The notes: generated by a model from the letters alone, not told the origin. A stretch of DNA of 17,730 bases from a virus (UHGV-1681856); one strand, 5' to 3'; counted from the stretch's first letter, positions 17,187 to 17,648 are shown. Translations and numbers: made by a program.

Positions 17187-17648
17187 ATGATTGACAAGAT
17201 AAAGACATGGTTTGACGCGGTGGATGATGGACGGGAGATTGGGAATGATGAAATTTCCGTGCAGGTCGGGTGCTTAATTGAGGAGATTTCCGAATTTATG
17301 GAATCAATAGCGCGCGGCGCGCCGGTTGTTGCAACTTTGAAAAGAAGGGCTGACGAGTTCAAGCAAAAAGATGTTTCATGTGTTAAGACAATGGAGATGA
17401 TACGGGAGAGTGAAAAGAGGAGTGTTGATACTCTCGATGCGCTCGCGGATGTTATTGTAACGTGCGTCGGCGTAGCAAGTCGAATGGGATTTGATATAGA
17501 AGGAGCATTGAATGAAGTGAATGAAAGCAACTTCAGCAAGTTTGAAAACGGAAAGCCTGTTTTTGATAAAAATGGGAAAGTGACAAAAGGCAAGGATTAC
17601 TTTAAGCCAAGTCTAAAAGATTTTATAAAGAAAGAGAGTAAAAAATGA
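17187..17648 (+). CDS. MazG-like (all-alpha) nucleotide pyrophosphohydrolase (153 aa)
   Basis: Acidic metal-binding-like motifs (LIEEISEFMES, DALADVIV) and C-terminal NESNFSKFENGK...KGKDYFKP resemble phage MazG-like NTP pyrophosphatases as I recall them. Initiation region AAATTAAAGGATT shared with the adhesin gene. Confidence 0.5.
   Translation: MIDKIKTWFDAVDDGREIGNDEISVQVGCLIEEISEFMESIARGAPVVATLKRRADEFKQKDVSCVKTMEMIRESEKRSVDTLDALADVIVTCVGVASRMGFDIEGALNEVNESNFSKFENGKPVFDKNGKVTKGKDYFKPSLKDFIKKESKK

Follow-up and report, generated by a model that had tools for sequence, protein, structure and literature searches.

A diverged MazG-like nucleotide pyrophosphohydrolase gene in the early region of a small oral myovirus

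Introduction

A short gene at positions 17187–17648 of a viral DNA raises three connected questions: which enzyme it encodes, on what nucleotide that enzyme would act, and whether it is mobile cargo or an ordinary part of the phage. The window, by which we mean the whole stretch of 17,730 nucleotides analysed (UHGV-1681856), is contig NODE_595 of the ENA assembly ERZ773076. The same phage has also been assembled as a 35.9-kb scaffold, and the MazG-like protein is found on five contigs from several assemblies. The original prediction was made from the sequence of the window alone, and its claims are taken up below where the evidence bears on them.

Results

The gene and its immediate flanks

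The predicted coordinates are exact: the gene is an ATG-to-TGA open reading frame of 153 codons on the + strand. Its predicted place directly 5′ of the second copy of a repeat is also borne out, the copy beginning at 17653, 5 nt 3′ of the stop codon. The features of this region are as follows.

17145–17163, + strand: GC-rich hairpin with a weak T-run between the adhesin and MazG-like genes (terminator scan; about −14 kcal/mol, z −1.2)
17175–17179, + strand: Shine-Dalgarno sequence AAGGA, 7 nt 5′ of the MazG-like ATG
17187–17648, + strand: MazG-like coding sequence, 153 aa, predicted DR2231/3nl9-like all-alpha NTP pyrophosphohydrolase
17653–17730, + strand: repeat copy 2 (R2), cut by the contig end, 93% identical to 15260–15333 (full copy at 10467–10646 of L001)

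The AAAGGAT context of the Shine-Dalgarno sequence is also found 5′ of the adhesin gene (repeat families D2/D4). The orthologue in the sister phage L005 has 88% amino-acid identity, and the comparison gives a dN/dS of 0.093 (dS 0.81, dN 0.075). Because of this ratio and the thousands of homologues described below, the gene is real; it is under purifying selection. An opposite-strand open reading frame of 233 aa at 16892–17593 runs across the intergenic hairpin and was treated as spurious.

Family assignment

By its sequence, the protein belongs to the all-alpha NTP pyrophosphohydrolase superfamily (MazG/HisE/dimeric dUTPase), in a branch with DR2231 of Deinococcus radiodurans (PDB 2yeu/2yf4) and Exig_1061 of Exiguobacterium (PDB 3nl9). 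Along its full length it is similar to PHROG 671, ‘nucleotide pyrophosphohydrolase’ (E=5.5e-30). The window protein alone scores under the gathering cut-off of three Pfam models: MazG-like PF12643 (21.3 bits, cut-off 27), PRA-PH (18.8 bits, cut-off 21.3) and MazG PF03819 (15.2 bits, cut-off 22, E=0.027). NCBIfam gave no match, a PDB search with the single sequence returned designed helical repeats only, and Foldseek of the predicted model against the PDB gave no significant match.

An alignment of 82 full-length relatives (A2) was used as the family profile. Against all PDB sequences, it matches 3nl9 at 3.3e-6 and seven sequence variants of DR2231 at E 0.009–0.065, the latter over profile positions 50–119. 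PRA-PH is matched by 15 of the 82 members (best 5.2e-9) and Pfam MazG-like by 5, with a single member matching PF03819 at E<0.01. Matches in BFVD bear the names NTP-PPase-like, MazG and ‘NTP pyrophosphohydrolase, DR2231-like’. The homologue in Stenotrophomonas phage Piffle carries a third-party annotation with an HHpred probability of 99.95 to the DR2231 entry 2YF4.

Profile similarity is thus significant to PHROG 671, 3nl9, DR2231 and PRA-PH, and the predicted structure is an all-alpha helical bundle, the fold of the superfamily. In the model, the predicted fold is shown to agree with that of the NTP pyrophosphohydrolase 3nl9. Homology to the DR2231-like branch includes both the second acidic motif and the N-x-S-K motif. 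The score for PF03819 lies below gathering, and on these profiles the protein is not a canonical MazG. The claimed MazG-like membership accordingly stands at the level of the superfamily and falls for MazG in the strict sense; the HMM search proposed for confirming it is, for the window protein, positive in PHROG 671, sub-threshold in three Pfam models and empty in NCBIfam.

Two more specific identities were dropped. PF08761, the dimeric dUTPase, is absent from the Pfam matches of the window protein. PurZ, DatZ and DUF550, which would go with a MazZ-type role in a 2-aminoadenine (Z) genome, are absent from the families listed for the phage genes and the MazG-like protein.

Conserved residues

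Eleven positions are invariant in all 82 A2 sequences (W8, Q26, E32, E33, E36, D84, D88, T92, N115, K118 and K131), and S114 and S117 are kept in at least 90% of them. Most of these residues fall into three motifs.

17280–17294, + strand: EExxE metal-binding motif, codons E32-E33-I-S-E36, with E32/E33/E36 invariant, on helix 20–41 of the model
17436–17450, + strand: second acidic motif, codons D84-A-L-A-D88, with D84/D88 invariant, on helix 76–99
17520–17540, + strand: N-x-S-K motif, codons N112-E-S-N115-F-S-K118, aligning with ANLSK of DR2231 and with 3nl9

The canonical metal-binding motif of the superfamily is EExxE(12–28)ExxD. The EExxE part is present in the window protein, whereas the second motif is DxxxD instead of ExxD and lies 47 residues downstream, outside the canonical spacing of 12–28. 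The number of acidic residues is therefore preserved but the canonical pattern is not, and 3nl9 has the same variant. In the alignment, D84-A-L-A-D88 falls opposite D-A-L-T-D in 3nl9 and the (E)-L-A-D region in DR2231. N115 and K118 would take part in phosphate binding.

Among the proteins with structures, Exig_1061 is a bacterial protein of 171 aa from structural genomics, named ‘putative NTP pyrophosphohydrolase’; as it has no reported activity, it adds no functional information. The profile match to DR2231 spans the second acidic motif and N-L-S-K. DR2231 is nevertheless a distant relative: it has the canonical ExxD where the phage family has DxxxD, and the match stops short of the conserved C-terminal tail of the phage family. 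Canonical MazG proteins (Escherichia coli, cyanophage S-PM2, Atd1) have in common with the window protein the superfamily, the EExxE motif and the predicted chemistry (NTP to NMP and PPi), and are set apart from it by its low PF03819 score.

Distribution in phages

The family is common. An exhaustive profile search gave 6008 cluster representatives at E<=1e-3, of which 274 reach E<=1e-30, and tblastn located the family in 391 cultured-phage records. The tblastn matches include siphophages of Vibrio and Pseudoalteromonas, full length at 43–49% identity. N4-like phages with a member infect Escherichia, Shigella, Achromobacter, Erwinia, Stenotrophomonas and Rhizobium; others are T7-like cyanophages and phages of Microbacterium, Gordonia and Corynebacterium. 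The annotations carried by cultured phages include ‘nucleotide pyrophosphohydrolase’, ‘NTP-PPase’, ‘MazG-like’ and ‘putative phosphoribosyl-ATP pyrophosphohydrolase’. The PHROG 671 genes of Vibrio phage PS15B and Pseudoalteromonas phage TW1 are of similar size to the window gene, with 43–49% identity over 95–99% of the length, and share its position in an early or replication module. Unlike them, the window gene belongs to a small oral myovirus and lies 3′ of an adhesin gene, and its product is less than 50% identical to any PHROG 671 relative in cultured phages. It is an ordinary early phage gene, a diverged member of a common and annotated ‘house-cleaning’ enzyme family.

Neighbours of the homologues

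The larger genes within 2.5 kb of a homologue in about 45 viral loci encode SSB (7), RecT (4), AAA_24 (4) and thymidylate synthase (3), with Dam, C5 and MT-A70 methyltransferases accounting for 7 together; DNA polymerase A, helicases and ribonucleotide reductase are further neighbours. In N4-like phages, the gene is located between rIIB and helicase or polymerase genes, and in two closer relatives of the window gene it lies amid helicases, RecT and a DUF4406 protein.

Thymidylate synthase, the substrate of which (dUMP) is the product of dUTP pyrophosphatase, is encoded immediately upstream of the MazG-like gene in three loci (L039 4805–5707, L041 4763–5707 and L042 5117–5971). In two of the three it overlaps the start of the MazG-like open reading frame as called, which there has an N-terminal extension of about 70 residues. 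An MT-A70 methyltransferase takes this upstream place in L010 and L012, and a DNA methyltransferase does so in Vibrio phage PS15B-5. No thyA is present in the window phage, and the phage genes listed include neither a trimeric nor a dimeric dUTPase.

Genome layout and the repeat

The myovirus genome of about 36 kb looks complete, its early arm consisting of recombination genes (RusA, NinG, Sak, YqaJ), HNH, methyltransferase, MazG-like and small open reading frames. The late operon (about 25 kb, − strand) encodes the small and large terminase, portal, Mu-F-like protein, protease/scaffold, cement protein, capsid, sheath, tube, tape measure, baseplate, a fibre of 1134 aa and the lysis genes. The early arm (about 10 kb, + strand) encodes RusA, small open reading frames, the adhesin, the MazG-like protein, NinG, HNH, a C5 methyltransferase, Sak, a YqaJ exonuclease and an HI_1489-like protein. 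Integrase, CI-type repressor, DNA polymerase, primase and helicase are absent from the families listed for the window, L001 and L062–L064. The record of L063 is labelled human oral metagenome. The closest portal protein of a cultured phage has at most 40% identity, and megablast of 14600–17730 against cultured phages gave no match. The block that ends with the MazG-like gene contains, in addition to the features above, the following.

15260–15439, + strand: repeat copy 1 (R1), the putative promoter/leader that heads the block, ending at the ATG of the next gene
15437–15739, + strand: first gene of the block, an acidic protein of 100 aa with no family match
16007–17137, + strand: YadA-type trimeric autotransporter adhesin, 376 aa, with YadA head, stalk and anchor domains and an EmaA-like anchor

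The repeat, originally described as a 74-nt element, is about 180 nt long and occurs three times in each genome: at 8074–8253, 10467–10646 and 14613–14792 of the ~36-kb phage (L001), and at about 6720–6945, 10524–10749 and 13499–13712 of the sister phage L005. Each copy ends at the ATG of the following gene. The apparent truncation of copy 2 is due to a break in the assembly and not to the end of the genome, since contig L061 (NODE_1864, 8.6 kb, from the same sample and with similar coverage) equals 10568–19180 of L001 at 99.9%, starting inside copy 2 and continuing on the same strand. This continuation was the only match to the repeat in a metagenome scan; a search for the repeat element in IMG/VR did not find it, and Rfam and tRNA scans of the window and L001 found nothing.

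The repeat is a putative promoter/leader, present in several copies, that splits the early arm into blocks; the MazG-like gene closes the first of these blocks and does not terminate a cassette. The idea of a discrete mobile cassette between direct repeats was discarded, given three copies each ending at a start codon and flanked genes that are largely syntenic between the sisters. Of the prediction that this is the last gene of a cargo cassette, the position before the repeat survives; the ‘cassette’ is a repeat-delimited block of the early arm, and its framing arose from the edge of the window. The MazG-like gene holds the equivalent position in both sister phages, has no promoter-like site of its own and elsewhere belongs to replication or recombination modules, none of which fits a mobile cargo gene (moron).

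The C5 methyltransferase has moved between the sisters. The orthologues (74% identity) are at 13598–14599 of L001, where the gene is the last before repeat 3, and at 8977–10008 of L005. In the window phage it closes the second block, 3 kb from the MazG-like gene; in L005 it sits between the adhesin and MazG-like genes and overlaps the start of the latter by 8 nt. This displacement suggests gene shuffling beside the repeats.

Several further observations concern the genome as a whole and its host. A scan of genome contigs for a host gave three distant marine matches only, and neither the Haemophilus and Actinobacillus USS nor the Neisseriaceae DUS variants that were tried occur in the window. 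GATC is strongly avoided, with 6 sites in the 17.7-kb window against about 69 expected at equal base frequencies, and so is CCWGG, with 2 sites; GGCC (60) and GCGC (93) are common. In 21 kb of the unrelated phage L068, which also carries the adhesin, GATC occurs only 2 times. The avoidance may reflect a GATC-cutting restriction system in the host. Tandem repeats of 12 nt (units such as GGCGCCAAAACC) form a long array at 19017–19515 of L001, upstream of the − strand lysis genes, and L005 has a similar array at 17466–17692.

Transcription signals

The MazG-like gene was described as terminator-isolated. A hairpin with a T-run does lie 5′ of the gene, but its stability is unremarkable, and a scan of the + strand from 15191 to 17730 found no promoter-like site, hence none between the adhesin and MazG-like genes. 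Expression of the MazG-like gene consequently needs read-through of the hairpin at 17145–17163, and isolation is an overstatement. The hairpin is a putative leaky terminator, or a stabiliser of the 3′ end of the adhesin mRNA. A hairpin of different sequence stands behind the adhesin gene in L005 and in the unrelated phage L068.

On the other side of the gene, copy 2 opens with a long, strong hairpin spanning its first 60 nt (−27.5 kcal/mol, z −4.55). A U-rich tract comes next, and this arrangement may terminate the MazG-like block. Two 17-nt dyad sites at 17654–17713 are inverted and fold into a hairpin right after the stop codon. The same two sites at 10537–10600 of L005 are direct repeats and are preceded by a separate GC-rich terminator.

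The order of elements in the repeat is two TGACR-N5-TGTCA dyads, the IHF-consensus-like AATCAAYAACTTA, TTGGCAC-N5-TTGCT, a GGAAC-GAAA-GTTCC hairpin and a fixed Shine-Dalgarno sequence. TTGGCAC-N5-TTGCT is an exact sigma-54 −24/−12 consensus, with a variable N5 (ATGCT, GAGGC, GCGCT) between invariant flanks, and the only matches to this motif in the genomes of the window phage and its sister fall inside the repeats. A sigma-70 scan found no site in the repeat, because its TATAAAT lacks the conserved final T in register. No enhancer-binding protein is among the phage genes listed, and covariation in the leader gave no support for an RNA structure. The repeat copies are, on their motifs, candidate sigma-54-type early promoters, which would be unusual in a phage.

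The MazG-like gene comes last in the first of three putative early transcription blocks, all headed by the promoter/leader of about 180 nt. As it has no promoter of its own and the promoter/leader is shared across blocks, it would be expressed together with the recombination and DNA-modification genes.

The adhesin gene

The adhesin has a signal peptide and a tail of about 30 residues (…VREVVREVVVREV…KGKKIRQ) beyond the C-terminal beta-strand typical of such proteins. Between the sister phages it is the most conserved of the genes compared (96% identical in L005); identity is 89%, ribosome binding site included, in L068, an unrelated phage of 61.6 kb with 36% GC and genes for an RNA polymerase and DNA polymerase A. 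A hairpin follows the gene in all three phage contexts. With these identities in a sister and in an unrelated phage, the adhesin behaves as a moron that passes between phages in which no integrase is seen; the adhesin, and not the MazG-like gene, is the mobile cargo.

Discussion

The product of the open reading frame is probably a soluble enzyme, largely alpha-helical, from the DR2231/3nl9-like branch of the superfamily. By analogy with the superfamily, the acidic residues E32, E33, E36, D84 and D88 would coordinate two or three Mg2+ ions, K118 and K131 would bind the phosphates of the substrate, and water would attack the α-phosphate of a (deoxy)nucleoside triphosphate to give the monophosphate and pyrophosphate. 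The same analogy would make the protein a dimer or tetramer.

We found no published substrate for any member of the subfamily, and the original statement that the substrate cannot be inferred from sequence was essentially right. A tentative case can be made that the role is house-cleaning of a pyrimidine dNTP, with dUTP first; removing dUTP would keep uracil out of the phage DNA and supply dUMP for thymidylate synthesis. We rank dUTP, or else another pyrimidine dNTP, as the likeliest substrate because thymidylate synthase adjoins the gene in some phages, no other dUTPase is listed in this one, and DR2231 reportedly accepts dUTP and nothing else (Mota et al. 2016, cited in PMC10014863). Adjacency to thymidylate synthase or to a DNA methyltransferase is a weak hint of such a substrate. 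Counting against dUTP, the adjacency to thymidylate synthase is seen in only 3 of about 45 loci, and the window phage lacks thyA. The specificity of DR2231 may also fail to carry over, the relative being distant (E about 0.01).

Other substrates have to be weighed against dUTP. The enzyme could act on canonical dNTPs, skewing or recycling the host pool towards the composition of the phage in the manner of S-PM2 MazG, which reportedly prefers dGTP and dCTP. Relatives in the T7-like cyanophages P60, S-CBP3 and S-CBP4 adjoin a nucleotide kinase, and cyanophage MazG itself is the precedent, a pyrophosphohydrolase that does not hydrolyse magic-spot nucleotides (PMC6850273). Hydrolysis of canonical dNTPs amid replication would nevertheless be costly and the closest characterised relative, DR2231, is the one reported as dUTP-exclusive; we consider such remodelling unlikely. 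It is rather unlikely, too, that the protein is an anti-defence enzyme that hydrolyses (p)ppGpp or cyclic and modified immune nucleotides and so blunts abortive infection, a reading that suits its place beside an accessory gene. The precedent here is Atd1, a MazG-like protein of Pectobacterium phage PcCB7V that hydrolyses ppGpp and protects against the toxicity of TIR-STING and retron-TIR (bioRxiv 10.1101/2022.06.09.495361), and both the block shared with a horizontally mobile adhesin and the frequency of DNA methyltransferases (anti-restriction genes) as neighbours agree with it. Atd1, however, was aligned by its authors with bacterial members of the MazG family (10.1101/2022.06.09.495361), while the window protein falls below that family (PF03819, 15 bits) and groups with DR2231 and 3nl9. 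The usual neighbours of the family are genes of replication and nucleotide metabolism, PADLOC gives no match for the protein, and even cyanophage MazG, formerly assumed to degrade ppGpp, does not do so (PMC6850273). The interference with host signalling originally suggested is thus conceivable and found no support in either PADLOC or the replication-gene context. Since PF03819 is not reached, the substrates published for canonical MazG, Atd1 and S-PM2 MazG are not transferable to the window protein.

A very improbable reading is that the enzyme is a sanitiser working with a phage DNA methyltransferase, removing the 5-methyl-dCTP released by turnover of methylated DNA before it can place marks at random. 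Mammalian DCTPP1 has a preference for 5-methyl-dCTP. The 8-nt overlap of the C5 methyltransferase with the MazG-like start in L005 and the methyltransferases immediately upstream in PS15B-5, L010 and L012 would fit, but even the two sisters differ in this pairing (in the window phage the methyltransferase lies 3 kb off, in another block), the paired methyltransferases belong to three unrelated classes (C5, Dam and MT-A70), and methyltransferases are common in phage early regions anyway. Taken broadly, a counter-defence or pool-editing enzyme (for an alarmone, immune-signal, chain-terminating or methylated nucleotide) that is co-expressed with the adhesin from the repeated promoter/leader is improbable; if true, it would mean a host-manipulation block in an oral phage showing no integrase.

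House-cleaning of a pyrimidine dNTP thus remains the reading we prefer. The placement of the family with DR2231 and 3nl9, and not with canonical MazG, makes accounts based on ppGpp unsuited to the window protein, and the recurrent pairing with thymidylate synthase makes dUTP the first candidate substrate for the whole family. The MazG-like gene matters little alone, being one more diverged member of an annotated family. More interesting are the thrice-repeated promoter/leader and the phage-borne adhesin, and the repeat is more unusual than the gene.
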